32,000 bases of DNA from Desulfobulbus propionicus DSM 2032 (GCF_000186885.1 NC_014972.1:2280001-2312000), one strand, 5' to 3'; shown: positions 11,368 through 25,492, numbered from the stretch's first letter. The notes: generated by a model not told the origin, from the sequence alone. Program-made: numbers and translations.

Positions 11368-12480
11368 TCACGGCCGCACCAGCGCCCTGAAAAGGAAATC
11401 ATTGCCCAGCGGCTGGAGCGCCACATCCGCCAACCTGGGGGCCTGATCGCGCCTTGCAAGACTATAGCCGCTGACAAGTGGCGTTCCCTGATCGCCGACG
11501 ATGAAGGGGGCATAAAAGAGCAGGAGCTCGTCAACCAGCCGCTGGCCATACATGGCGCCGTGGATGCCGGCACCGCCCTCGACCAGCACGGAGGTCAGGT
11601 TCCGCGCCCCGAGCAAGCGAAGCATGGCGGGCAAATCCACTCGGCCATCCGCGCCAAGCGCCAGGCGAAGCACCCGCGCGCCAGCACGGACCAACTGTTC
11701 CTCGCGGTCGCTGGATGCCTCGGAGCCGCACACCACCCAGGTTTCCGCCGTTGACCGTTGGTGCAACATCCTGGCCTGAGGGGGCAGCCGCAAACAGGAA
11801 TCGAGCACGACGCGCACAGGATCACGGGTATCGGCTACACCTTCCAGCCGGGTGGTCAGGCTGGGGTCATCGATGATCGCTGTTTCCACCCCAATTAAAA
11901 TCGCATCGGTCTGATTGCGCAGTCGATGCACAAACCGCCACGATTCCTCGCCGGTCAGCGCCGCGCCTTGTCTGGATCGGAAGGTGATCTTGCCGTCGAG
12001 GCTTAATCCGGCCTTCATCATCACCCACGGCAAACCAGTGGTGCTGTGCTTGATGAAAGGATAATTCAACGCCCGGCAGGGCTGCTCAAGCACTCCGCTC
12101 ACGACCTCAAGGCCGCGCTGCCGCAGATAGGCGGCCCCCCCACCAGCCACCCGGGGGTTGGGATCAGCCATGCCGATGACTACCATGGCTATACCGGCAG
12201 CGAGAATGGCCTCGGTGCAGGGGGGAGTACGACCAGTGTGATTACAGGGCTCCAGGGTGACATAGATGGTTGCGCCTCTCGCTTGGGGACCAGCATCGGC
12301 AAGGGCATGGACTTCGGCGTGCGGCGTGCCGGCTCGATGATGATACCCCCGGCCGACCACTTTCCCGTCCTTGACCACCACCGCTCCTACCGCCGGATTG
12401 GGTGAGGTGCGGCCCAGGCCCTTCCGCGCCTCGGCCAGGGCCAGTTCCATGTACCACTCATGCCCATGCGCCATTGCCAT
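11368..12480 (-). CDS. ribD: bifunctional riboflavin biosynthesis deaminase/reductase RibD
   Basis: Deaminase motifs: PNPAVGAVVV, HAEVHAL, TLEPCNHTGRTPPC. The C-terminal reductase domain is present (LVEGGAGIHGA). Confidence 0.92.
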   Translation of the reverse strand: MAMAHGHEWYMELALAEARKGLGRTSPNPAVGAVVVKDGKVVGRGYHHRAGTPHAEVHALADAGPQARGATIYVTLEPCNHTGRTPPCTEAILAAGIAMVVIGMADPNPRVAGGGAAYLRQRGLEVVSGVLEQPCRALNYPFIKHSTTGLPWVMMKAGLSLDGKITFRSRQGAALTGEESWRFVHRLRNQTDAILIGVETAIIDDPSLTTRLEGVADTRDPVRVVLDSCLRLPPQARMLHQRSTAETWVVCGSEASSDREEQLVRAGARVLRLALGADGRVDLPAMLRLLGARNLTSVLVEGGAGIHGAMYGQRLVDELLLFYAPFIVGDQGTPLVSGYSLARRDQAPRLADVALQPLGNDFLFRALVRP

Positions 12481-12486
12481 GTCCCC

Positions 12487-12951
12487 TCAGTGTTTTCCCC
12501 GCTCGCCGAGAAACAGTTTCAGTTCGTCCATGAATTCGTTGACATCCTTGAACTGACGATAGACCGAGGCAAAACGCACATAGGCTACCTCGTCCAAGGC
12601 GGGCAGCGCCTCCATCACCCACTCGCCGATCTGGCTGGTGGGAATTTCCTTGCCACCGTAATCCTGCAACTTTTGTTCGATATTGTCGACAAAGGCGTCG
12701 ATATCGGTCATGCTGACCGCCAGCTTCTCGCAGGCCTTCTCCAATCCGGCGACGATTTTTCCCCGATCCCATGGCTCGCGTCGCCCGTCTTTTTTGATCA
12801 GCATCGGCAGCATCAACTCAATCCGCTCGTAGGTGGTGAAACGGCGCTGGCAGGCATCGCATTCCCGGCGGCGGCGGGTGATGGTTTTATCCTTACTGAT
12901 GCGGGAATCAATGACCCGACTGTCCAAATGACCGCAATACGGACACTTCAT
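12487..12951 (-). CDS. nrdR: transcriptional repressor NrdR (zinc ribbon + ATP-cone)
   Basis: [17 protein letters not shown]...[17 protein letters not shown] followed by an ATP-cone domain. It lies 6 nt upstream of ribD. Confidence 0.95.
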
Positions 12952-12996
12952 GGTACCCCCACTCTGGATGATGGCAAAAGGCGGAGAATCGGCTGC

Positions 12997-13036
12997 AAAA
13001 AAAAACCGGCAGCCTTGTATTCAAGCCTACCGGTTT
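12997..13036 (-). terminator. intrinsic terminator downstream of rpiB
   Basis: The minus strand reads AACCGG-uagg-CUUG-aaua-CAAG-gcug-CCGGUU followed by a U-tract (9 A's on the plus strand at 12997-13005, the two proximal ones shared with the outer stem). Confidence 0.6.
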
Positions 13037-13063
13037 GTCGAGAACATGCTGACAGAGGAATGC

Positions 13064-13489
13064 TCACCCCATCATGGTGATCCTTCTCAGGTGACGGCCT
13101 CCGGCGAATTCGGTCTCGAGCCAAACCTTGACAATGTCCAGGGCAATGGAACGACCCAAGACCCTGGCCCCCAAACAGAGGACGTTGGCATCGTTGTGTT
13201 CACGGCTGAGTCTCGCGGTGACCGCCTCGTGACAGAGTGCAGCCCGGATATGGCGATGCCGGTTGGCGGCGATCGACATACCAATTCCCGTACCGCAAAT
13301 GAGAATGCCACGGGTGGAGGTTCCTTCCTTGATCGCCGCGCACACTTTGTCGGCAAAAACGGGATAATCCACCGATTCAGGCGAAAAGCAGCCGACATCA
13401 TTGACCGTGTGGCCGGCTTGTTCAAGCAACGAGACAATCTCCTGCTTCAACTCCAATCCGCCATGATCACATCCCAGGACAATATTCAT
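13064..13489 (-). CDS. rpiB: ribose-5-phosphate isomerase B
   Basis: MNIVLGCDHGG, ILICGTGIGMSIAANR, NDANVLCLGARV, and 141 aa in length. Confidence 0.92.
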   Translation of the reverse strand: MNIVLGCDHGGLELKQEIVSLLEQAGHTVNDVGCFSPESVDYPVFADKVCAAIKEGTSTRGILICGTGIGMSIAANRHRHIRAALCHEAVTARLSREHNDANVLCLGARVLGRSIALDIVKVWLETEFAGGRHLRRITMMG

Positions 13490-13512: not shown

Positions 13513-14751
13513 TTAAGCGTAACGCCGAAAGATGACCACGCCGTTGGTACCGCCAAAGCCAAAAGAGTTGGACATGGCGGTTTCAAAGCGGGTTTCCCGT
13601 GCCGTCAATGGCACATAATCGAGATCGCAGTCCGGATCAGGATTGTGCAGGTTGGCGGTCGGGGGAATGATGCCATGGTGCAGGGCGAGGACGGTGAAAG
13701 CCGCCTCGATACCGCCCGCCGCCCCCAGCATGTGGCCGGTCATTGACTTGGTGGAACTGACCGCCAGTTGATGGGCATGGGCTCCAAAAACGGTTTTGAT
13801 GGCCAGGGTCTCGCACTTGTCGTTGAGCGGAGTGGAGGTCCCATGGGCGTTGATATAGTCGATGTCTTCGGGGTTCAGGCGGGCATCCCGCAGGGCAGCT
13901 GCCATGCACCGAGCCGCTCCCTCGCCATTTTCAGGCGGAGCGGCGATGTGATAGGCATCACTGCTCTGGCCATAGCCGATGATCTCGGCATAGATGGTCG
14001 CGCCCCGTCGTTTGGCGGCTTCCAGCTCCTCAAACACCATCATCCCCGCGCCTTCGGAGATGACAAAGCCATCGCGGTCCCGGTCAAAAGGCCGCGAAGC
14101 GGTGGTCGGATCGTCGTTGCGGGTCGACAGGGCCTTCATGGCACTGAATCCGCCAACGGCAAGGGGGCAGATGACCGATTCCGTCCCGCCGGTGATGGCC
14201 ACGTCGCAATCGCCATAGGCAATGTGACGGAAGGCCTCGCCGACCGCATGGGTGCCGGCGGCACAAGCGGTGGTTTGGGTCAGATTGGGCCCCTTGCAGC
14301 CGATGCGCATGGAAATATGCCCGGAAGGCATATTGGGAATGACCCTGGGAATAAAGAACGGAGTGATCTTGCGTGGCCCCTTGTTCATCATAACCCCGTG
14401 GTATTCCTCGATGGTGGGCAGACCGCCCATACCGCAGCCAGTAATCACCCCGACCCGATCGACATTTTCCTCGTTGATCGACAGGCCGCTGTTTTTCCAG
14501 GCAATGTCCGCAGCAGCCACCGCATATTGCACAAAGGCATCGAGATTTTTTGCCTGTTTTTTTTCAAACCACACCTCAGGATCAAAATCCTTGACCTCGG
14601 CGGCTATCTGCGAGGCCTGATCAGAGGCATCGAAGCGGGTGATCGGTCCGATCCCGCTCTGCCCGTTGATCAGCGCGTTCCACGTCTGCTCGGTACCGAT
14701 ACCGAGCGGCGTGATCAAGCCAATTCCTGTTACAACGACCCGTCGTTTCAC
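13513..14751 (-). CDS. fabF: 3-oxoacyl-ACP synthase II
   Basis: KAS II blocks: [15 protein letters not shown], active-site [30 protein letters not shown] chose the GTG start at 14751, preceded by GGAGCGGGAGAG. The track ORF runs to 14847 and would overlap acpP. Confidence 0.92.
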
Positions 14752-14767: not shown

Positions 14768-15001
14768 TCAGCCTTGAATCTTGGCCACGAAATCGATGGC
14801 ATTCTGCACGGTGACGATCTTCTCGGCCTCTTCGTCGGGGATTTCAACGTCGAATTCCTCTTCCATGGCCATGATCAGTTCGACCAGATCCAGGGAATCG
14901 GCTCCGAGGTCATCGACAAAGGATGCGCCCGGAACAACTTTGTCACGATCAACACTGAGTTGCTCGACGATGATATCAATCATTTTATCTTCAACGGCCA
15001 T
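14768..15001 (-). CDS. acpP: acyl carrier protein
   Basis: [19 protein letters not shown] carries the phosphopantetheine Ser (DSLD). ATG 15001 is preceded by GAGGAG. Confidence 0.95.
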
Positions 15002-15080: not shown

Positions 15081-15830
15081 TCAATGTCCCATATACATTC
15101 CGCCATTGACATGCAGGGTCTGACCAGTAATGTAGTTACTGTCAGGCGAGGCCAGAAAGCCCACCGAGGCGGCAACATCCTCCGGCGTTCCCAAGGTTCC
15201 CATGGGAATCTGGGCCTTGAGCGCTTCCTGAACATCTTCGGTGAGGCCATCGGTCATGTCGGTGACGATATATCCGGGAGCCACGCAATTGACGGTGATG
15301 TTCCGCCCCGCCAACTCCCTCGCCATGGATTTGGTCAGTCCCGCCAGGCCAGCCTTGGCCGCGCCGTAGTTGACCTGCCCGCTGTTGCCGACAAATCCGA
15401 CCACCGACGACACATTGATGATTCGTCCCCACCGTTTTTTCATCATGGCGCGCATCACTGCCTTACTGCAGAGAAACGCCCCTTTCAGATTGGTATCCAA
15501 CACGCTGTCCCAGTCGTCTTCCTTCATGCGTGCCATCAAGCCATCGCGGGTAATGCCCGCATTGTTGACCAGGATATCGATCTGGCCATGTGTCGCGATA
15601 ATTTCCTTGATTTGTTCCTGAACCGCTTGCGCATCGGCCACATCAAATCGGACGGTAAAGCCCTTGCCGCCCACGGCCTCGACCTGCCGGAGGGTTTCTT
15701 CGGCCGCCGCCGGATTCGCAACGTAATTGATGCCGACCGTGGCCCCCATGGCGGCGAGTTTCAGGCAAATGGCTCGACCGATCCCGCGGCTGCCGCCGGT
15801 CACGAGGGCAATCATCTTTTCCAGTATCAT
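15081..15830 (-). CDS. fabG: 3-oxoacyl-ACP reductase
   Basis: SDR motifs: TGGSRGIGRA, NNAGI, YGAAKAG. Typical FabG C-terminus GQTLHVNGGMYM. The start ATG overlaps the etfA stop (ATGA). Confidence 0.9.
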   Translation of the reverse strand: MILEKMIALVTGGSRGIGRAICLKLAAMGATVGINYVANPAAAEETLRQVEAVGGKGFTVRFDVADAQAVQEQIKEIIATHGQIDILVNNAGITRDGLMARMKEDDWDSVLDTNLKGAFLCSKAVMRAMMKKRWGRIINVSSVVGFVGNSGQVNYGAAKAGLAGLTKSMARELAGRNITVNCVAPGYIVTDMTDGLTEDVQEALKAQIPMGTLGTPEDVAASVGFLASPDSNYITGQTLHVNGGMYMGH

Positions 15831-17017
15831 TTCTTCATCTCCTGCAACCGCTGAATCAAACGCGGCACCACTTCATACAGATCACCGACCACCCCATAGG
15901 TGGCTATATCAAAAATGGGTGCACTCTTGTCTTTGTTGATCGCCACCACGATCTCTGCCGATTGCATGCCCACGGCGTGCTGCACAGCCCCGGAAATACC
16001 GCAGGCAATGTAGAGCTTGGGGCTGACCGTCTTACCAGTCTGCCCCACTTGATGGGGATAGGGGATCCAACCAGCATCCACCGCGGCCCTGGAAGCGGCG
16101 ACGGCGCCTCCCAGTTCGTTCGCCAGTTCACGGATCAGGGCAAAGCCCTTGGCCGAATCGAGTCCGCGTCCGCCAGCCACCAGCGCTTCGACCTCCTGAA
16201 TATTGACCTGATCATCGGTGTTGATCACTGTCTCGAGCACTTCAATCTTCGACTGGAGTAACCGCTCGGGAATTTGCATCACGACCACCTCCCCGCGACG
16301 CGTTGGGTCGGGCTCGGCAGGTGCCATCACCTTGGGCCGCACCGTGGCCATCTGTGGCCGAGTGTGGGGGCACTCAATGGTTGCCATGATATTGCCGCCA
16401 AAGGAGGGCCGGGTCTGCAGCAACATGCCGTCGGATTCCCTGATTTCCAGCCGAGTGCAATCGGCGGTGAGTCCCGCATCGATGGCGTTCGCCACATAGG
16501 GGATGACTGAACGGCCGATGGCGGTCGCTCCGGCGAGCACCACTTCGGGCTTTTGCTCCCGGATCACCTGCTCCAGAATACCGGCGTAAACATCTTCGCG
16601 AAACTGTTCCAACAGCGGATGTTCGGCAAGAAACACCCGGTCTGCGCCGGCAGCTATCAGATCCTGGGCCAGCGAGGCGACCGCGCCTCCGGGAAGCACG
16701 GCACTAAGCGTGGTTCCGCGCTGCTCGGCAAGTTTCCGGCCAATGCCGAGCAACTCATAGCTGACCTGCGCCACTTTGCCATGACGATATTCAGCAAACA
16801 CCAAAATGCCCGAATAGTCGTTGATGTCGGCCCGAACCCGCTTCTCCGCAGTTTCAATCCTCAATGCCCCGACCGGACAGTTTTCAACACAAGCCCCGCA
16901 CAGTGTGCAGGATTCATTGACCACGGCACAGTCGACCTCGACGCTGATCGCTCCAAAGGCGCAACTTGTTTCACAGATGCCGCAGGCAGTGCATTTCTCG
17001 CTATCGATAATCAGCAT
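15827..17017 (-). CDS. etfA: electron transfer flavoprotein alpha subunit with N-terminal 2x[4Fe-4S] ferredoxin domain
   Basis: The N-terminus has two CxxCxxCxxxC(P) motifs (CTACGICETSC, CTLCGACVENCP). The rest is EtfA-like: VAGGRGL, AVDAGW, QVGQTGKTVSPKLYIACGISGAVQH. I chose ATG 17017 because the track ORF to 17206 would overlap etfB. Confidence 0.88.
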   Translation of the reverse strand: MLIIDSEKCTACGICETSCAFGAISVEVDCAVVNESCTLCGACVENCPVGALRIETAEKRVRADINDYSGILVFAEYRHGKVAQVSYELLGIGRKLAEQRGTTLSAVLPGGAVASLAQDLIAAGADRVFLAEHPLLEQFREDVYAGILEQVIREQKPEVVLAGATAIGRSVIPYVANAIDAGLTADCTRLEIRESDGMLLQTRPSFGGNIMATIECPHTRPQMATVRPKVMAPAEPDPTRRGEVVVMQIPERLLQSKIEVLETVINTDDQVNIQEVEALVAGGRGLDSAKGFALIRELANELGGAVAASRAAVDAGWIPYPHQVGQTGKTVSPKLYIACGISGAVQHAVGMQSAEIVVAINKDKSAPIFDIATYGVVGDLYEVVPRLIQRLQEMKK

Positions 17018-17054
17018 GGGAACAATCCGGTTGAAATCACGGGGTGAAAGACGA

Positions 17055-17834
17055 TCACAGATGCGCCTTGAGGCACGCGACCAGTTGGTCGACCTGCTCT
17101 TCAACGCTTCCTGTAAAAATTTTGCGATTGCCCTTGGGCTCCGGCGCGAACACCCGGACCACCTGCGTCGGGGAACCGGCCAGACCGATGCACTGCGGGT
17201 CAGCACCGATATCTGAGGCGGAAAAGCACTTGATTGCCGCTTTTTTCGCTTTCATCTTCCCTTTCAGCGAAGCCACACGCGGCTGGTTGATATCCTTGAC
17301 CACGGTCATCAGGGCCGGCAGAGGCAGGCGGACGACATCAAACCCATCGTCCATCATCCGTTCCACTTCGATAACCCCATCGCCAACCGTACGCGTCTTC
17401 TGAATACAGGTAGCGTACGGCACCTGAAGTCGGTGGGCCAGTCCCGGCCCCACCTGGGCGGTATCGCCGTCGATCGCCTGCTTGCCGCAGAGAACGAGAT
17501 CAAAGGGGCCGATAGCCTCTATGGCCTTGGCCAAGGTGTAAGAGGTCGCCCACGTATCGGCCCCGGCAAAGGCACGGTCTGAAACCAGCACTCCTTCATC
17601 GGCTCCACAGGCGATGGCCTCACGCAACACCGCCTCGGCCTGCGGTGGCCCCATGGTCAAAACGGTTACGGCGCCTCCCAGCTGCTCCTTGATGGCCACC
17701 GCCTCTTCCAGGGCATGGCGATCATAAGGGTTCATGATCGACTCCACTCCCTCCCGGGCCAGGGTGTTGGTTTTCGGATCGAGACGAACGTCCTTGGCGT
17801 CCGGAACCTGTTTGACACAGACGATAATCTTCAT
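17055..17834 (-). CDS. etfB: electron transfer flavoprotein beta subunit
   Basis: MKIIVCVKQVPD, NPYDRHALEEA, CGKQAIDGDTAQVGP. Confidence 0.9.
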   Translation of the reverse strand: MKIIVCVKQVPDAKDVRLDPKTNTLAREGVESIMNPYDRHALEEAVAIKEQLGGAVTVLTMGPPQAEAVLREAIACGADEGVLVSDRAFAGADTWATSYTLAKAIEAIGPFDLVLCGKQAIDGDTAQVGPGLAHRLQVPYATCIQKTRTVGDGVIEVERMMDDGFDVVRLPLPALMTVVKDINQPRVASLKGKMKAKKAAIKCFSASDIGADPQCIGLAGSPTQVVRVFAPEPKGNRKIFTGSVEEQVDQLVACLKAHL

Positions 17835-17848
17835 GCGTTGTCCTGCTC

Positions 17849-18997
17849 TCAGGCGTATTCCTTGTTCAATTCCTGGCCAACGACATTGCGCTGAATCTGG
17901 TTGGTGCCTTCATAAATTTGAAGGATCTTGGCATCGCGCATCATCTTCTCCACCGGATACTCTTTCATGTAGCCGTATCCACCCAACACCTGAACCGCAT
18001 CGGTGGTGACTTTCATGGCCATATCGGTGGCAAAGACCTTGCACATGGACGAGACCTTGGACATATCCTTGGGATGCTTGTCGATGTGCTTTGCCGCCGC
18101 GTAAACCAACGATCGGGCTGCCTCCAGCTGGATGGCCATGTCGGCCAGGATGTGTTGCACGGCCTGAAAGGATATGATCGGTTTGGCGAACTGAACGCGT
18201 TGCTTGGCATAGGTGACCGCTTCATCAAGCGCTGCCTGGGCAAGGCCGACACCTAGGGAGGCGATCCCTGGCCGCGACATGTCCAGGGTCTTCATCACGG
18301 TGATGAACCCGGTTCCCCGCTTGCCTACCAGTCGATCCTTGGGAATACGGCAATCCTTGAGAATCAATTCCCGGGTGGCCGAGGCCCGGATGCCCATCTT
18401 GTCTTCCTTCTTGCCATAGGAAAATCCCGGATCCCCGTCCTCGACCACGAAAATGGAGGCTCCGCGCGCGCCCTTGTTGGGGTCGGTCAAGGCAACAATG
18501 GTGTAGATCTGTGATTCGCCGCCATTGGTGATCCATTGTTTGGTCCCGTTCAGCACCCACTCATCGCCATCCAAAACCGCGGTGGTGCGGATGCCGGAGG
18601 CATCACTGCCGGCATTGGCCTCGGTCAGACCAAAGGCGGCCCAGCGGGATCCGCTGGCGATATCGGGCATGTATTTCTGTTTCTGCTCTTCACTGCCGGC
18701 AATCAGCACCGGAAAGATGCCCAAAGCGCTGGCGGCAAAGCTGGTGGCCACACCAACGCATCCCCGGGCCAATTCTTCCAGGGCCAGGACAACCTCAAAA
18801 CAACCGCCGCCAAACCCGCCATATTCCTCGGGAACAAATATGCTGAACAGATCCGCCTTGGCGATATCCTTTAATATTTCGCGGGGAAACTGGTTTTTTT
18901 CATCAAGTTCGGCCCGAACCGGAATAATCTTTTCATTGGTGATTTCCCGGGCGGTATCAACGATCATCTGCTGCTGTTCAGTGAGAAAATAATCCAC
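17849..18997 (-). CDS. acyl-CoA dehydrogenase (short-chain/butyryl-CoA dehydrogenase-like)
   Basis: ACAD blocks: GLTEANAGSDASG, KQWITNGG, and the catalytic-base region ILQIYEGTNQIQR. GTG start at 18997 is preceded by AAGGAGAG and gives the family-typical N-terminus (V)DYFLTEQQQM. The track ORF to 19078 would overlap fabH. Confidence 0.88.
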   Translation of the reverse strand: MDYFLTEQQQMIVDTAREITNEKIIPVRAELDEKNQFPREILKDIAKADLFSIFVPEEYGGFGGGCFEVVLALEELARGCVGVATSFAASALGIFPVLIAGSEEQKQKYMPDIASGSRWAAFGLTEANAGSDASGIRTTAVLDGDEWVLNGTKQWITNGGESQIYTIVALTDPNKGARGASIFVVEDGDPGFSYGKKEDKMGIRASATRELILKDCRIPKDRLVGKRGTGFITVMKTLDMSRPGIASLGVGLAQAALDEAVTYAKQRVQFAKPIISFQAVQHILADMAIQLEAARSLVYAAAKHIDKHPKDMSKVSSMCKVFATDMAMKVTTDAVQVLGGYGYMKEYPVEKMMRDAKILQIYEGTNQIQRNVVGQELNKEYA

Positions 18998-19016: not shown

Positions 19017-19994
19017 TTACCAACGCATGAGCAGCGAACCCCAGGTGAGGCCGCCGCCAAAGGTACATAACAACACAATGTCTCCCCGCCTCAGCCGTCC
19101 TTCACGGTGCGCTTCGTCCAGCGCGATCGGGATGCTGGCGGCCGAGGTATTGCCGTACTTGCTTAAATTGATGAACACCTTCTCCTCCGCGATGCCCAAT
19201 CGGTCACGCAAATTGGTCAGGATGCGGATATTGGCCTGATGGGGAATCATGAGGTTGACGTCGTCGATGGTGAGGTCATGCTTACGCAACAGACTGGTAA
19301 CGGCATCCTCCATCATCCGAACAGCATGTTTGAAGATGTCGCTGCCGCTCATACGGATATGAGGCCCGTGCCATATGTCCGGCCGCAGATCCGGATTAAG
19401 GCTTTCCGGGCTGTCCATGCACAACAGGTTCCACAATTTGCCATCTGAATGCAAACTGCTGCCAAAAACTCCTCGACCGTCATGCGAGCCAGAAAGGACC
19501 ACCGCTCCCGCTCCGTCCCCAAAAAGAACACAGGTGTTGCGATCTTCCCAGTCCACCCGAGCGGACAGTGTTTCCGCACCGATCAGCAGGATTTTCATTT
19601 CCGGCCGATTCTGAATGTAATTGCTCGCCAGATCCAGACCATAGGTAAAACCGGCACAGGCGGCGTTGATGTCGTAGGCAAAGGCATTCACCGCCCCCAA
19701 TTCCGCCTGCACGAAACAGGCAGTGGACGGCATGATCATGTGCGGCGAAACGGTCGCGACAATAATCAGATCGAGCTCTTCGGCATCGATCCCGGTCACA
19801 GCGAGCGCCCGTCGTCCCGCCTTGGCGGCCAGCTGATAATTTTGTTCATTCTTTCCAGCAATATGCCGGTTTCGAATACCGGTCCTGGTCGTAATCCATT
19901 CATCGGAAGTATCCACCATCCGCTCAAGCTCGGCATTGGTGAGTTTCCGTTCGGGAAGACAGGAACCGGTTCCCAAGATAACTGCTCTATTCAT
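19017..19994 (-). CDS. fabH: 3-oxoacyl-ACP synthase III
   Basis: Catalytic-triad contexts NAACAGF, PHQANIRI and GNTSAASIP. I chose the start at MNRAVILGTG (ATG 19994). Confidence 0.92.
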   Translation of the reverse strand: MNRAVILGTGSCLPERKLTNAELERMVDTSDEWITTRTGIRNRHIAGKNEQNYQLAAKAGRRALAVTGIDAEELDLIIVATVSPHMIMPSTACFVQAELGAVNAFAYDINAACAGFTYGLDLASNYIQNRPEMKILLIGAETLSARVDWEDRNTCVLFGDGAGAVVLSGSHDGRGVFGSSLHSDGKLWNLLCMDSPESLNPDLRPDIWHGPHIRMSGSDIFKHAVRMMEDAVTSLLRKHDLTIDDVNLMIPHQANIRILTNLRDRLGIAEEKVFINLSKYGNTSAASIPIALDEAHREGRLRRGDIVLLCTFGGGLTWGSLLMRW

Positions 19995-20007: not shown

Positions 20008-21021
20008 TCAGGCGGCGAATTCGCCAAGGGCTTCAACGATCGCGTCGTTGATGCGATTGTGGACCATGCTGGCGGCGACTTCAATCGCATTGCGGATGGC
20101 CACGGCATTGGAGGCGCCGTGACAGATGATGCCGGTGCCGTCTATACCGAGCAGTGGCGCGCCGCCATATTCCGCGTAGTCCACCTGTTTTTTAAATCCA
20201 GCGAAAGCCTCGCGGATAAGGAGATACCCAAGTTTGGCACGCCAAGTTTTCATGATTTCCCGCTTCAGCATCTGCATGGCCGCCTCGGCCAGGCCCTCGC
20301 TGATCTTCAGCGAAATATTGCCGACGAACCCATCACATACCACCACATCGACATCGCCGCGATACACGTCGCGTCCCTCGACATTGCCGATGAAGTGCAA
20401 GGGGCTTTTTTTGAGCAATTCATGAGTTTCCTTGACCAGCGCATTCCCTTTTCCGGTTTCCTCGCCATTACTGAGCAACCCGACCCGTGGCCGTTCATGC
20501 TTGAGCAGCAACCGAGAGCAGGATGAGGCCATGACAGCAAATTGATACAAATGCTGCGGTCGACAGTCAACATTCGCACCGATGTCCATCAGCATCACCG
20601 GTTTTTTCAATGTCGGGAAGAAACTGGCAATGCCCGGCCTGGATACACCGGGAAGCCGCCCCAGCTTTCGTACGGCCGCCGCCATGGTCGCGCCGGAATT
20701 GCCGGCGGAAACAAGCGCGTCCGCCTCGCCGTTCTTTACCAGATCGAAACCGACCATAATGGTCGCCTCTTTCTTCTTGCGCACGGCATCAACCGGGGAA
20801 TCATCCATGGTGATCACCTCGGCGGCGTGATGGACACTGATTCGATCCAGTGCATCGCCTTGGCCGCGGGCATGTTCAGCGAGTTGTTGTTCCAAAAGAT
20901 GTTGGGGGCCAACCAAGACGACGCGGAGATCTTTCCTGCCGCCAACGGCGGCGAGTGCCCCTTGAATCGCCATCTCTGACCCCCGGTCGCCACCCATGGC
21001 GTCAAGGGCTATTCTCACCAC
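20008..21021 (-). CDS. plsX: phosphate acyltransferase PlsX
   Basis: MVRIALDAMGGD, SAGNSGA, VVCDGFVGN. Confidence 0.93.
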   Translation of the reverse strand: MVRIALDAMGGDRGSEMAIQGALAAVGGRKDLRVVLVGPQHLLEQQLAEHARGQGDALDRISVHHAAEVITMDDSPVDAVRKKKEATIMVGFDLVKNGEADALVSAGNSGATMAAAVRKLGRLPGVSRPGIASFFPTLKKPVMLMDIGANVDCRPQHLYQFAVMASSCSRLLLKHERPRVGLLSNGEETGKGNALVKETHELLKKSPLHFIGNVEGRDVYRGDVDVVVCDGFVGNISLKISEGLAEAAMQMLKREIMKTWRAKLGYLLIREAFAGFKKQVDYAEYGGAPLLGIDGTGIICHGASNAVAIRNAIEVAASMVHNRINDAIVEALGEFAA

Positions 21022-21029
21022 AGTGCCTA

Positions 21030-21218
21030 TTAGCTTATCTCTTCCTCAAGACGGATCACACTCCGCCCCTTGTACATGCCACAACCGCCGCATAACTGAT
21101 GACGCATCTTCGCTTCGCCACACTCGGGGCATTGCCCGACGCTGGGTTTAGTCAACGCATCGTGCGCCCGGCGCATTCTTGTTCGCGAATGGGAATGTCT
21201 ACGTTTCGGTAAAGCCAT
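21030..21218 (-). CDS. rpmF: 50S ribosomal protein L32
   Basis: MALPKRRHSHSRTRMRRAH plus the zinc ribbon CPECGE...CGGCG. ATG 21218 is preceded by GGAGGA. Confidence 0.93.
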   Translation of the reverse strand: MALPKRRHSHSRTRMRRAHDALTKPSVGQCPECGEAKMRHQLCGGCGMYKGRSVIRLEEEIS

Positions 21219-21299
21219 AATGTCCTCCATTGCGTCCACAAACATTGAACGGTGCCGAATCGCCCATTCTGTCGTCTTTGGACAACTTATTGATAAAAT

Positions 21300-21815
21300 T
21301 TATTTTTTCAACCGAGCAAGTCCCGCAAAAGGAGACCGATTATCCTCGGCGGCACAGCTGCAGTGCATCCCATTCAGGTTAGCGCCGCAACGCGGGCAAA
21401 GCCCCTTACAGGTTTCGGCGCAGAGATTTTTCATCGGGAGCGCCAGATATATCTGCTGTCGAAACACATCGTCAAGGTCAATGACAGGTTCTTCAAGCAC
21501 CTCGATGTCTAAATCTGTTGTTGTACATTCGACTTCCTTCAAACGCCACGAGGCTTCGCTCTCTACCTCGAACAGCAACTGGAAATCGGTATCCACCTGC
21601 ACATCGTAATCTCCAAGGCAGCGATCGCATACCAATGTCACCACGGCTTGAAGATACCCCTGCATGCCAACCTTTGCTTCGCCTTCGCGACGCAGTTCGC
21701 AATGGGCCTGCAGAGGTCCCTTGATGGCAAAATCCCGCTGCGCGACAAGACTTTCTATGACTGTCAACTCGAAACGACTGCCATACGGGGAGATTTCATT
21801 GAACCGGACCTGCAC
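21300..21815 (-). CDS. yceD: YceD/DUF177 family protein (large-subunit rRNA accumulation protein)
   Basis: Position upstream of rpmF. CDRCL...CxxxCKGLCPRCGANLN cysteine motifs typical of DUF177. Confidence 0.85.
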   Translation of the reverse strand: MQVRFNEISPYGSRFELTVIESLVAQRDFAIKGPLQAHCELRREGEAKVGMQGYLQAVVTLVCDRCLGDYDVQVDTDFQLLFEVESEASWRLKEVECTTTDLDIEVLEEPVIDLDDVFRQQIYLALPMKNLCAETCKGLCPRCGANLNGMHCSCAAEDNRSPFAGLARLKK

Positions 21816-21966
21816 CCTGCACCACCTTCAACCGCGCGAAAAAGTTGGTTTTCCGTCGAAACGGAAAAGTATACCTAAAAAAAAAATCTTCGCCAAGCAA
21901 AAAGAGAAGAATTTGAAAAAGAGAGGAGAATCAAGATGAAAGAAGCATTGATTCCTGCGGATGGAA

Positions 21967-22650: not shown

Positions 22651-23418
22651 TTATTTTGTCTGAGAATGATTGCGCGTTTTACTTCGCATCTGGAAGTAGC
22701 CGTTGCGAAAAGCTATATAGGGATCAAAGCTCAAGGATTTCAACTGGTCATATTCCCCAAGATGCAGCGAGGTGCGATTCACCGTATTAACGCCGGTAAG
22801 CGTGTACGGGCTCAATTCGTCATCGCTCCACGGATAATAGGAAGCCATGGCCAAGCTGTCAACCACGGTTCCGGTCAAATCGCGCACCGTGGACGGTCCC
22901 AGCAAGGGTGCGACCACATAGAAACCGTCGCCGATGCCCCAGGTGGCGAGCGTTTCCCCGAGCGTGGCGCTGATGGGCGGAATGGCAAATTCATGGGCCG
23001 CGGTATCCGCCAAGCCAAAGACACCGCAGATGGTGTTGAGCGCGAACCGGGATAAGACCAGACCGGAATCGCGAAACCGTCCTTGCAGCAGGCAGTTGAC
23101 GGAGCGCACCGGTTCACCGAGGTTGTAAAAAAAATTGCCGATGCATCCCCGAATATCGGCAGGCAGTACCTTGCTGTATCCTGTGGCCACAGGGTCCAAC
23201 ACCCATATGTAGAACTTGTCGTTCAACGTGAAGATCGCCCTATTCACCGGCTCGATCGGATCGGCAACTTGGGCAGTTTCTCCATTTGCATAGGCGTCAT
23301 CGCTGAGGAAGTCATTGGCGGCCGCATTGCCGCCCCCAATGAGGAAAGACACGCACAGCATAAGACAGCAGCGCAACAGCAACGCGAAGATAGGTTTTGG
23401 TTGCATAACGGGACTCAC
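22651..23418 (-). CDS. mlaA: outer-membrane lipoprotein MlaA/VacJ
   Basis: VacJ blocks: DPIEPVNRAIFTLND, FFYNLGEPV, GLVLSRFALNT, GETLATWG. Start is ambiguous: GTG at 23418 or ATG at 23406. Confidence 0.85.
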   Translation of the reverse strand: MSPVMQPKPIFALLLRCCLMLCVSFLIGGGNAAANDFLSDDAYANGETAQVADPIEPVNRAIFTLNDKFYIWVLDPVATGYSKVLPADIRGCIGNFFYNLGEPVRSVNCLLQGRFRDSGLVLSRFALNTICGVFGLADTAAHEFAIPPISATLGETLATWGIGDGFYVVAPLLGPSTVRDLTGTVVDSLAMASYYPWSDDELSPYTLTGVNTVNRTSLHLGEYDQLKSLSFDPYIAFRNGYFQMRSKTRNHSQTK

Positions 23419-23419
23419 G

Positions 23420-23872
23420 TTATTTTTTCACCTCGCCAAAGGCAAATTTGGAAATGAGCGATTCCAAATCAACCGCCGATTCCGTGTCAACAATGGCTTC
23501 TCCGGGTTTGTAGGCGGTTTCATCGCCTCCCAGGGTAATCTGAATGTATTTATCCCCAATGATACCTTGCGATTTAACGGAGGCGATCGAGTCGACAGGG
23601 ACGACCACCTCGCGGTCGATCTGCATGGTCACAACGGCCTGACGATCTTCATTGAGATGCAATTGGCGCACCTTGCCCACCGTGACACCAGCAATCTGCA
23701 CATCTGCTCCCGGCTTGACCCCGGAAATGTTATTAAACTCGGCATGCAGGAGGTAGGTCTTGGCACCGGTCAACCAGGGGACCTCGCCAAGCTGCAACGC
23801 CAACCACCCCAGGGCCAGAAAACCGACCACCAGAAAAAAACCAACAAATAATTCCACACGCGCATTGGTCAT
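23420..23872 (-). CDS. mlaD: MCE-domain protein MlaD
   Basis: One N-terminal TM helix followed by an MCE domain (FNNISGVKPGADVQIAGVTVGKV). Confidence 0.85.
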   Translation of the reverse strand: MTNARVELFVGFFLVVGFLALGWLALQLGEVPWLTGAKTYLLHAEFNNISGVKPGADVQIAGVTVGKVRQLHLNEDRQAVVTMQIDREVVVPVDSIASVKSQGIIGDKYIQITLGGDETAYKPGEAIVDTESAVDLESLISKFAFGEVKK

Positions 23873-23891
23873 AGCCTTTTCCTTTCCTCAA

Positions 23892-24677
23892 TTATGCCGC
23901 CTGCTGTCCCATGACCGAGCGGGCAAACTCACGGATCTTTGGTTTGGTTGAAAGCGGGATCTGGGCGGGATCTGAAAAAATATCCAGCTCGCCTTTGTTC
24001 AGGAGGATGATCTGGTCGGCAAGGGTAAAAATCTGCGGGATATCATGGCTGACGATAACCGCCGTATATCCAAGACGTTGCTGGGTGCGAACAAACAGTT
24101 CGTAGATTTCCCTGGTCATAACCGGATCAAGACCGGTGGTCGGCTCGTCGAACAAGACGATTTCCGGCTCAAGCTGCAGGGCTCGGGCCAGGCCCACGCG
24201 TTTTTTCATCCCGCCGCTGAGCTGGGCAGGAAATTTTTCCTCATGCCCTGTCAATTCAAGCTGTTCAAGCGTCGCCGCGATACGGCTTCTTATCTCCTGA
24301 TCGCTCAACCGGGTACGCTCCCGCAACGGCAATGCGATGTTTTCAAAGACGGTCAGCGAATCGAACAAGGCTGCCCCTTGAAAAAGCACACCGAACCGCA
24401 TTCGCTGTTCCTGAAGGGCTTTGTAGCCCATGGTGGTGATATCTTTTTCGCCGATCAAGACCTGACCAGAATCAGGACGCAGCAGGCCGAGAATTAGCTT
24501 GAGAATCACGCTTTTCCCCTGACCGCTGCCCCCGGCAATGACCGTGGTCTTGCCCTTGGGCACGGAAAAGCTGACCCGGTCAAGCACCAGATGGCGCCTG
24601 GACCGCTCGCCAAAGGATTTACAGACATCGACAAATTGGATGGCTGTTTCATTGGCCGGGGCGATTGCTGTACTCAT
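23892..24677 (-). CDS. mlaF: ABC transporter ATP-binding protein MlaF
   Basis: Walker A GGSGQGKS, signature LSGGMKKR, Walker B IVLFDEPT. It overlaps mlaE by 4 nt. Confidence 0.9.
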   Translation of the reverse strand: MSTAIAPANETAIQFVDVCKSFGERSRRHLVLDRVSFSVPKGKTTVIAGGSGQGKSVILKLILGLLRPDSGQVLIGEKDITTMGYKALQEQRMRFGVLFQGAALFDSLTVFENIALPLRERTRLSDQEIRSRIAATLEQLELTGHEEKFPAQLSGGMKKRVGLARALQLEPEIVLFDEPTTGLDPVMTREIYELFVRTQQRLGYTAVIVSHDIPQIFTLADQIILLNKGELDIFSDPAQIPLSTKPKIREFARSVMGQQAA

Positions 24678-25492
24678 AGCAACACCGCGGTGAGCAGATA
24701 GTCAAAGATCAAGACCGAAATCGACGACATGACCACTGCTTGAGTGGTGACTTTGCTGACGCTCTCCGCACCAAAACCGGCCCCGCGAATTGTCTGGACA
24801 AAATAACCGCGACCGGTGCAGATCCATGCCACCAGCAAGGCGAAGACAAAGGATTTAATTACCCCCAGGCGCACATCGTGGTTGGTGACGCTTTGCTCCA
24901 TGCCGGAAAAAAAGGCGCCACTGTTCACGCCCATAAGCTTCACCCCGGCCAAATATCCACCGGTGATGCCGATCACATCGAAAAACGCGGTCAACAGGGG
25001 AACCGAGATCAAGGTTGCAAGAAGTTTGGGGGATATGAAATAACGAAAAGGGTCGATGGCCATGCATTCCAAGGCATCGATCTGTTCGGAAATCCGCATG
25101 ATACCGATTTCTGCGCACATCGCCGATCCGGCTCGCCCAGCCACCATCAGGGCGGTAAGCACCGGCCCGAGCTCCATGATCAGGCTGAGGGAGACCGCGG
25201 AACCCAGCATCCCTTCGGCACCAAATTTATGCAGGGAGTAGTACCCTTGCAGCCCCAGAACCATGCCGGTGGAAAGCGCGGTGAAAAAAATCACCGTCAA
25301 CGACCCTGCGCCGATAAATCCGACCTGCTTGATCAATTCACGGAAACGAAAGGGACGTTTGAGAAGGCCCAGCAGGGAAAAAAATAAAAAAATCCCCATC
25401 CTGCCGAGATCGGTCAGGGTGTAGATCGCTTGATCGCCCATTCTGCCGATCAGGCGCAGTAAGGGAAGGGAACTTTTTTCTGTTTCAGTCAT
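24674..25492 (-). CDS. mlaE: ABC transporter permease MlaE
   Basis: Multi-TM protein with MlaE-type blocks: GAGSLTVIF, ELGPVLTALMVAGRAGSAM, EIGIMRISEQIDALE. No obvious SD at 25492, so the start is uncertain. Confidence 0.85.
   Translation of the reverse strand: MTETEKSSLPLLRLIGRMGDQAIYTLTDLGRMGIFLFFSLLGLLKRPFRFRELIKQVGFIGAGSLTVIFFTALSTGMVLGLQGYYSLHKFGAEGMLGSAVSLSLIMELGPVLTALMVAGRAGSAMCAEIGIMRISEQIDALECMAIDPFRYFISPKLLATLISVPLLTAFFDVIGITGGYLAGVKLMGVNSGAFFSGMEQSVTNHDVRLGVIKSFVFALLVAWICTGRGYFVQTIRGAGFGAESVSKVTTQAVVMSSISVLIFDYLLTAVLL

Follow-up and report, generated by a model that had tools for sequence, protein, structure and literature searches.

The core operon for type II fatty acid synthesis (FAS-II) of Desulfobulbus propionicus DSM 2032 raises a simple question: what is the role of the genes for an acyl-CoA dehydrogenase (ACAD) and for the two subunits of an electron-transferring flavoprotein (Etf) that lie in it between fabH and fabG? 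The locus belongs to a stretch of 32,000 nucleotides (genome positions 2280001-2312000), hereafter the window, whose numbering is used for all gene coordinates unless stated otherwise; the genome searched is a single contig of 3,851,869 bp. On the minus strand of the window, the open reading frame listing, the Pfam matches and our reading of the sequence all give the order yceD-rpmF-plsX-fabH-ACAD-etfB-etfA-fabG-acpP-fabF (Table 1). A first-pass annotation made from the DNA sequence alone had described this order and its coordinates correctly, and its further details, namely the spacers of 19 nt (fabH-ACAD), 14 nt (ACAD-etfB) and 37 nt (etfB-etfA), the ATGA overlap between etfA and fabG, the IYEGT motif with the catalytic glutamate and the ferredoxin domain fused to EtfA, are exact. 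We propose, with moderate confidence and from comparative sequence evidence, that the ACAD-etfB-etfA module encodes an Etf-dependent, probably ferredoxin-reducing, reductase of enoyl thioesters of the acyl carrier protein (ACP). This is the explanation best supported by its position in the operon, its housekeeping conservation, the bifurcating type of its Etf, its complementarity with FabI, the existence of genomes with no other reductase candidate and the lack of any catabolic context. A flavin- and Etf-based, possibly ferredoxin-coupled enoyl reductase of FAS-II had been the first of the readings offered in the first-pass annotation, and it is the one that fits the comparative data best, at the same moderate level of confidence.

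A module fixed in the core fab operon

The ACAD gene is present in 40 of 41 Desulfobulbales genomes, its product being 88-93% identical within the genus and 75-82% identical in 15 other families. All 30 loci fetched from the genus and the order show plsX-fabH-ACAD-etfB-etfA, and 22 Desulfobulbales-type loci also show the module inside the fab operon. When another 20 loci of this order were compared with the window, protein identity averaged 81.5% for ACAD, 80.9% for AcpP, 74.4% for EtfB, 71.4% for FabF, 69.6% for FabG, 68.0% for PlsX, 64.2% for FabH and 63.8% for EtfA. ACAD is thus conserved in this order to the level of AcpP, which is the behaviour of a housekeeping protein. In 17 of 18 Desulfobulbales loci etfA and fabG are separated by -2 to +14 nt, so that the embedding and tight packing first noticed in D. 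propionicus hold for its relatives too. The only Desulfobulbales genome without the module (G040) has a clean plsX-fabH-fabG-acpP-fabF operon and a FabI of 285 bits elsewhere.

The same arrangement was found well outside the order. We drew 151 genomes of the phylum Thermodesulfobacteriota that were at least 90% complete, counting as orthologs proteins of at least 61% identity: 70 of them carry exactly one ACAD ortholog, in an all-or-none pattern by family, and in all 60 loci fetched from outside the Desulfobulbales ACAD lies inside yceD-rpmF-plsX-(fabH)-ACAD-(etfBA)-(fabD)-fabG-acpP-fabF, including two cut contigs that still begin yceD-rpmF-(plsX)-ACAD-etfB. The etf genes directly follow ACAD in 32 of these 60 loci (at least etfB on cut contigs). 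Desulfobacca has rpmF-ACAD-etfBA-fabG, and other Thermodesulfobacteriota have plsX-ACAD-fabD-fabG with no adjacent etf. The order plsX-fabH-ACAD-etfB-etfA-fabD-fabG-acpP-fabF is found in Nitrospirota of the Thermodesulfovibrionia type (L072, L076, L082, L083) and in a Margulisiibacteriota genome (L091), and Saganbacteria loci likewise have the module inside the fab operon. With 30 of 30 loci of relatives and 60 of 60 loci of the phylum, this arrangement is far beyond chance, and the comparison of synteny that had been suggested from the D. propionicus sequence reveals a strongly conserved association and not a sporadic, strain-specific insertion.

This regularity makes it very improbable that the module is an enzyme of catabolic beta-oxidation or a redox module of general use, placed in the operon by chance and without a role in fatty acid synthesis, even though routine annotation does name the protein an acyl-CoA dehydrogenase and the 2009 genome paper of D. 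autotrophicum, the only prior hint that we found, files 'Bcd, FabGH' under beta-oxidation (PMC2702500). That paper also notes such ACAD sets in sulfate reducers without fatty acid degradation (PMC2702500). Several phyla and every one of the 60 sampled loci keep this position, the conservation equals that of AcpP, and another ACAD (49% identity), accompanied by an etfBA of canonical type (30% identity), is encoded separately in the D. propionicus genome at 810-815 kb. In no locus examined does ACAD have an hbd, crotonase or thiolase gene of beta-oxidation or butyrate pathways beside it, and the unlinked relatives of this ACAD in Nitrospiraceae, Clostridiaceae and Actinomycetota stand among housekeeping genes, without catabolic neighbours.

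The first-pass annotation had also placed the module in the slot of fabD. We reject a replacement of fabD, since this gene has been relocated in D. propionicus, where it lies in the context ileS-lspA-fabD-ffh-rpsP (269.9 bits against a TIGR00128 cut-off of 260.9), and since Nitrospirota and Margulisiibacteriota keep the module between fabH and fabD, as do operons with fabD in general. fabD is thus a relocated housekeeping gene that has left the fab operon in Desulfobulbales, ACAD being fixed between fabH and fabD-fabG.

Several loci depart from the common pattern. fabH is absent from many operons of the phylum (L173, L174, L177, L179, L182 and others), which read plsX-ACAD-fabD-fabG-acpP-fabF with ACAD in the usual place of fabH. 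An ACAD only 38% identical to that of the window occupies the equivalent place, rpmF-ACAD-fabG-acpP-fabF, in genome G138 (L237:5899-7026), which points either to a deep divergence or to a second event in which an ACAD entered this operon. The cable bacterium Ca. Electrothrix marina has about 1.2 kb of additional DNA between etfB and etfA (L046:9006-10225), and in a Nitrospirota locus ACAD and etfB are about 3 kb apart (L066:8147-11273). The fab-embedded ACAD of genome G095 (L201) gives two separate matches, one of 68% and one of 69% identity, and may be frameshifted or interrupted.

A predicted complex of the bifurcating type

The ACAD belongs to its superfamily by all three Pfam domains (PF02771, 114 bits; PF02770, 92 bits; PF00441, 180 bits), and only ACAD families matched it in Pfam and NCBIfam, with no homology to the SDR, NMO or FabV folds. 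Its catalytic-glutamate motif reads LQIYEGTNQIQ, in which E363, G364 and T365 are invariant among 30 aligned sequences. The best matches in the PDB are ACADs at about 400 bits, including the Bcd of C. difficile (5OL2_C, 397 bits), and CarC ranks 22nd among the PDB ACAD matches with 319 bits. All NCBIfam equivalog cut-offs lie above its scores, the best of which is for AcrC (440 versus 640); the other two subunits also remain below theirs (AcrB, 240 versus 475; AcrA, 346 versus 600), so that the module does not classify as AcrABC. Nor does the ACAD reach the cut-offs of families acting on carrier proteins (MbtN, 72 versus 700; RedW, 254 versus 650; PigA, 231 versus 500).

For EtfB the best PDB match is CarD (6FAH_B, 261 bits); the next four, at 220-236 bits, are bifurcating Etfs too, against about 109 bits for canonical Etfs. 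EtfA aligns over its full length with CarE (6FAH_A, 430 bits) from residue 5, ferredoxin domain included, and carries two N-terminal CxxCxxCxxxC motifs, C9xxC12xxC15xxxC19 and C37xxC40xxC43xxxC47. For each subunit the five best PDB matches are bifurcating Etfs (276-430 bits for EtfA, 220-261 for EtfB), as compared with 63-170 bits for canonical ones, and by these match scores both are assigned to the bifurcating group and not to the canonical Etfs. Because of the matches to Bcd, CarD, CarE and the bifurcating Etfs, the three genes are predicted to encode a complex of the CarCDE/Bcd-EtfAB type. In enzymes of this type NADH reduces an enoyl thioester and ferredoxin together, in the reductive direction.

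Complementarity with FabI and the reductases of D. propionicus

If the module reduces enoyl-ACP, its distribution should be read against that of the known reductases. Taking matches of at least 237 bits as genuine FabI, we found this enzyme in 22 of the 151 genomes of the phylum, 21 of them without ACAD and one with it, and the two sets of families overlap in one family only. Three genomes with the module (G113, 100% complete; G105, 97%; G032, 96%) and four metagenome-assembled genomes (MAGs) with it (G043, G046, G055, G057) gave no match to the FabI and FabL models, to FabV or to the NMO family. FabL exceeds its cut-off in 23 of the 41 Desulfobulbales genomes (24 have a match), and single-contig Desulfobulbus genomes are among those that lack it, a patchy occurrence compared with that of the nearly universal ACAD.

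Neither fabD nor an enoyl-ACP reductase gene lies in the window, as had been stated from its sequence, because every genome-wide match falls outside 2280001-2312000. The suggestion that a conventional reductase is absent altogether was mistaken: a stand-alone SDR of the genome exceeds the FabL equivalog cut-off of 328 with its 347.7 bits, and the genome further has a divergent FabI-like SDR of 168 bits, below every FabI cut-off, which sits in a second lipid cluster, and a FabX-like protein. FabV was not found in this genome with a model shown to work on genome G201. According to the first-pass annotation, a conventional reductase in the genome together with strict CoA specificity of the complex would refute a role in FAS-II; of this pair, the reductase is present.

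The second lipid cluster is self-contained and FAS-like (genome about 3.055-3.067 Mb; L127:4766-16856). It comprises genes for a KAS, an ACP, two amine-oxidase-type FAD proteins, a DUF6946 protein, a FabG-like protein, a FabA/ApeI-like dehydratase, the divergent FabI-like protein, a DUF1232 protein, a KAS III, a hydrolase, an AMP-ligase and an NAD-dependent reductase. A conserved SDR of 287 aa without NCBIfam assignment (genome 2858642-2859505, plus strand; L011:1432-2295:+; also L134, L136, L139), whose best match is FabG-like at 133 bits, occurs as well in Desulfobulbales genomes without FabI and FabL and is, by sequence, an alternative reductase candidate.

A separate candidate for unsaturated fatty acids

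A second reading of the first-pass annotation was that of an acyl-ACP dehydrogenase serving the anaerobic synthesis of unsaturated fatty acids. In the form weighed here, saturated acyl-ACP would be oxidised to trans-2-enoyl-ACP (and then converted to the cis-3 form), the module acting as an analogue of FabX or as a partner of a FabX-like protein. FabX of H. pylori is a flavoenzyme that acts on the C2-C3 bond of acyl-ACP and passes the electrons on via an iron-sulfur cluster (PMC8626469). The FabX-like protein of D. propionicus is encoded far from the module (Table 1) and differs from it in fold and gene. With the FabK model it reaches 185 bits, against a cut-off of 453; its C-terminal half is closer to FabX of H. 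pylori (82 bits) than to FabK (58 bits), and all four of its cysteines align with the ligands of the FabX [4Fe-4S] cluster (C300, C304, C308, C320). Of the 41 Desulfobulbales genomes 38 encode it, and in the Margulisiibacteriota locus its gene lies between acpP and fabF (L091:12197-13159). Since FabZ was found in the D. propionicus genome and FabA was not, the FabX-like protein is likely to provide the anaerobic route to unsaturated fatty acids.

The unsaturated-fatty-acid step thus already has a candidate beside the module, with which the FabX-like gene co-exists in most Desulfobulbales, and in one operon in L091. Dehydrogenation is the native chemistry of ACADs, FabA is missing, and some genomes have ACAD without a FabX-like protein and others the reverse, all of which would suit an oxidative role. 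The Etf, however, is of the bifurcating NADH/ferredoxin type. Running a bifurcating Etf backwards is strongly endergonic, by about +44 kJ/mol for crotonyl-CoA/butyryl-CoA. An acyl-ACP dehydrogenase would not predict the anticorrelation with FabI either, and would leave the genomes without any reductase unexplained. We consider this reading improbable, and in any case less likely than the reductive one given the FabX-like gene and the reductive type of the Etf.

Evidence against an enoyl-ACP reductase and the CoA alternative

Our preferred reading, an enoyl-ACP reductase, has to face a number of contrary observations. D. propionicus itself has a FabL equivalog above the cut-off, so that the module is not needed there as the sole reductase, and 25 genomes of the phylum with ACAD also have FabK-model matches of about 200-380 bits. 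Genomes without any FabI, FabL, FabK or FabV match number 27 of 70 with ACAD and 16 of 81 without it (odds ratio 2.6), in counts for which related genomes are not independent and MAGs are incomplete. The 16 genomes that lack both ACAD and these reductases have standard fab operons and in several cases a FabX-like protein only. Three of the genomes lacking both, with standard fab operons, are complete or nearly so (G081, G093, G130; L239, L243, L245): G081 has no NMO-family protein at all, and G093 and G130 have a FabX-like protein only. These 16 genomes imply at least one further undetected reductase in the phylum, which could serve the ACAD-bearing genomes as well, and FabX-like proteins may themselves reduce enoyl-ACP. 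Finally, 28 of the 60 fab-embedded ACADs have no adjacent etf genes, with Etf paralogues elsewhere in those genomes.

The argument that ACAD must be the reductase wherever no known reductase is found is weakened by the 16 ACAD-minus genomes. Many of the genomes scored as having none, with or without ACAD, possess NMO proteins of the FabX-like kind, which go undetected by the FabK model at E 1e-35, and in some genomes the FabX-like protein is the only candidate enoyl reductase.

The ACAD sequences themselves add to the contrary evidence. Unlinked relatives in Clostridia, Actinomycetota and other phyla share 60-68% identity with the D. propionicus protein; comparing 103 operon-linked with 21 unlinked ACADs, no alignment column separates the two sets at 85%/15%, and no gain of basic surface residues is seen among the top discriminating positions, the best of which (L359 versus T, I275 versus S, A264 versus S) are conservative. 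The absence of a signature and of a single clade means that either the whole clade has one function or none of its members has changed from a CoA enzyme. Monophyly of the operon-linked ACADs, which we considered, is unsupported: they are clustered (8 changes versus 27.6 in shuffles) and interleaved with unlinked sequences from Nitrospirota and others. A complex prediction for the ACAD dimer with AcpP, both given as 30-row alignments, scored 0.00, which is no answer and evidence neither way.

The lack of a linked/unlinked signature speaks for a true short-chain enoyl-CoA reductase of the Bcd/EtfAB or acryloyl-CoA-reductase type, which would make butyryl-CoA or propionyl-CoA, for instance as the primer for FabH, and would share the regulation of FAS-II but leave ACP thioesters untouched. 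Among the matches given above, the best ones in NCBIfam and the PDB (AcrC, 440 bits; Bcd 5OL2_C, 397; CarC, 319) are CoA-dependent, which also speaks for it. Desulfobulbus makes odd-chain fatty acids from a C3 primer, which we count in its favour too. Against such a role, however, no thiolase, hbd or crotonase gene is near any locus to supply crotonyl-CoA, many lineages keep ACAD in operons from which fabH is gone, and the scores miss all curated equivalog cut-offs by a wide margin; furthermore, the near-exclusion with FabI and the genomes without another reductase candidate would be left unexplained. On balance we regard a CoA reductase as unlikely.

A possible further class of enoyl-ACP reductase

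As an enoyl-ACP reductase, the module would work as follows. NADH would reduce the bifurcating FAD of EtfB, from which one electron path would run through the FAD of EtfA and that of ACAD to trans-2-enoyl-ACP, yielding acyl-ACP, and the other through the two [4Fe-4S] clusters of EtfA to ferredoxin. We infer that the substrates would be ACP and not CoA thioesters, over a range of chain lengths likewise inferred, and that the reaction would proceed in the reductive direction with reduction of ferredoxin. In D. propionicus the module would act alongside FabL. In a broader and more tentative form, for which we would claim somewhat less than even confidence, the proposal is that of a further class of enoyl-ACP reductase, an ACAD fed by a bifurcating, ferredoxin-fused EtfAB, in which two NADH would be oxidised and reduced ferredoxin formed per elongation cycle. 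This class would be the housekeeping reductase of roughly half of the Thermodesulfobacteriota, of Thermodesulfovibrionia-type Nitrospirota and of Margulisiibacteriota, and possibly also, in the form of unlinked relatives, of other anaerobes.

The closest known system is CarCDE of Acetobacterium woodii (PDB 6FAH), likewise a three-gene ACAD/EtfB/EtfA module with an N-terminal 2x[4Fe-4S] ferredoxin domain on EtfA and the best PDB match of both Etf subunits (430 and 261 bits). CarCDE, however, serves caffeate respiration with a CoA thioester as substrate, whereas the module studied here lies in a housekeeping fab operon and its ACAD has CarC as its 22nd-ranked match only. Bcd-EtfAB shares the IYEGT-type ACAD (348-397 bits to Bcds) and an Etf pair of the same bifurcating group. 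In butyrate or glutamate fermentation its genes accompany those for thiolase, hbd and crt. The module has no such neighbours and forms part of a FAS-II operon, in an organism that does not live by butyrate fermentation.

If our preferred reading is right, the functional analogue would be FabK, an FMN-dependent enoyl-ACP reductase that is also a non-SDR flavoprotein encoded in a fatty acid synthesis operon. In operons of Firmicutes fabK lies between fabH (or acpP) and fabD-fabG, a position to which that of the module corresponds. fabK has been placed within the operon for fatty acid synthesis (PMC9671860). FabK differs in being an NMO/TIM-barrel protein without homology to ACAD, a single subunit that uses NAD(P)H directly, whereas the module is made up of three proteins with two predicted iron-sulfur clusters and, on the model of Bcd-EtfAB, an expected three FAD. 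That the ACAD fold accepts substrates bound to carrier proteins is illustrated by the acyl-ACP dehydrogenase MbtN and the prolyl-PCP dehydrogenases RedW and PigA, although these are oxidative enzymes of secondary metabolism and the ACAD of the module scores far below their cut-offs.

Enzymes of this kind are known; what appears to be new is that one is fixed in the core FAS-II operon of several phyla, together with the role that this implies. Full-text literature searches found no paper linking an ACAD/Etf module to FAS-II, though an earlier mention may exist, and ACAD, Etf and ferredoxin go unmentioned in a review of enoyl reductases from 2022. Were the proposal true, a mechanistically different class would join FabI, FabL, FabK and FabV, and the missing reductase step would be filled in many genomes. 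Energy-limited anaerobes would regain low-potential electrons from the very exergonic enoyl reduction, as reduced ferredoxin, while building their lipids; the energetics and the redox balance of lipid synthesis would change as a result, and the hydrogen-isotope signatures of lipids might do so too. Because of the current ACAD/Etf annotation, oxidation of fatty acids or butyrate could then be wrongly inferred when the metabolism of sulfate reducers, cable bacteria and Nitrospirota MAGs is reconstructed. Whatever the function, a single-copy ACAD fixed in the core fab operon of several phyla, and lying there in D. propionicus and in about half of the sampled genomes of its phylum, calls for an explanation.

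Locus features, transcription and neighbouring genes

Table 1. Features of the D. propionicus fab operon and the distant FabX-like gene (window positions unless marked as genome positions).
Feature	Position	Strand	Basis or remark
yceD, first gene of the cluster	21300..21815	-	Pfam YceD, 98 bits
rpmF (ribosomal protein L32)	21030..21245	-	Pfam Ribosomal_L32p, 82.8 bits
plsX	20008..21021	-	Pfam FA_synthesis, 363 bits
fabH (KAS III)	19017..19994	-	Pfam ACP_syn_III and ACP_syn_III_C; TAA stop at 19017-19019
ACAD, Bcd/CarC-type acyl-CoA dehydrogenase, 382 aa; candidate enoyl-thioester reductase subunit	17849..18997	-	
etfB, bifurcating type	17055..17834	-	Pfam ETF
etfA, 396 aa	15827..17017	-	Pfam Fer4, ETF, ETF_alpha
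N-terminal 2x[4Fe-4S] ferredoxin domain of etfA	about 16823-17017	-	
ATGA, overlap of etfA stop and fabG start	15827..15830	-	Read in the sequence
fabG	15081..15830	-	NCBIfam FabG equivalogs above cut-off (344 versus 332, 342 versus 298)
acpP	14768..15001	-	Pfam PP-binding; DSL motif kept in 30/30 aligned sequences
fabF	13513..14751	-	Pfam ketoacyl-synt N-terminal and C-terminal domains
FabX-like NMO-family protein, 325 aa	genome 3205063-3206040 (L002:1477-2454:-)	-	CxxxCxxxCxxxxC

The ACAD gene starts with GTG, preceded at 7 nt by AAGGAG, and AGGAG lies 8 nt 5' of the ATG of fabG. Of the co-transcription and co-translation with the fab genes that the first-pass annotation had considered very probable, the tight packing stands, and the gene packing together with bridging contigs from RNA libraries hints at co-transcription. 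Metatranscriptome contigs from four studies span the locus, three of them with one contig across all junctions; they are a weak hint only, because a contig is no proof of a transcript and may stem from carried-over DNA. In a consensus scan no promoter-like or terminator-like site was seen in the four junctions of the module, a result that is uninformative because the counts of such sites across the region are at chance level; the weak promoter-like site that the scan gave 5' of yceD (21868-21896) is to be read with the same chance level in mind. At position 16405, within etfA, the RNA-library runs of all four separate studies have C where the window has A, which is either a population variant or a reference error.

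On the same strand, the lipid transport genes mlaE, mlaF, mlaD and mlaA lie directly upstream of yceD (22651-25492), and rpiB, nrdR and ribD come after fabF (11368-13489).

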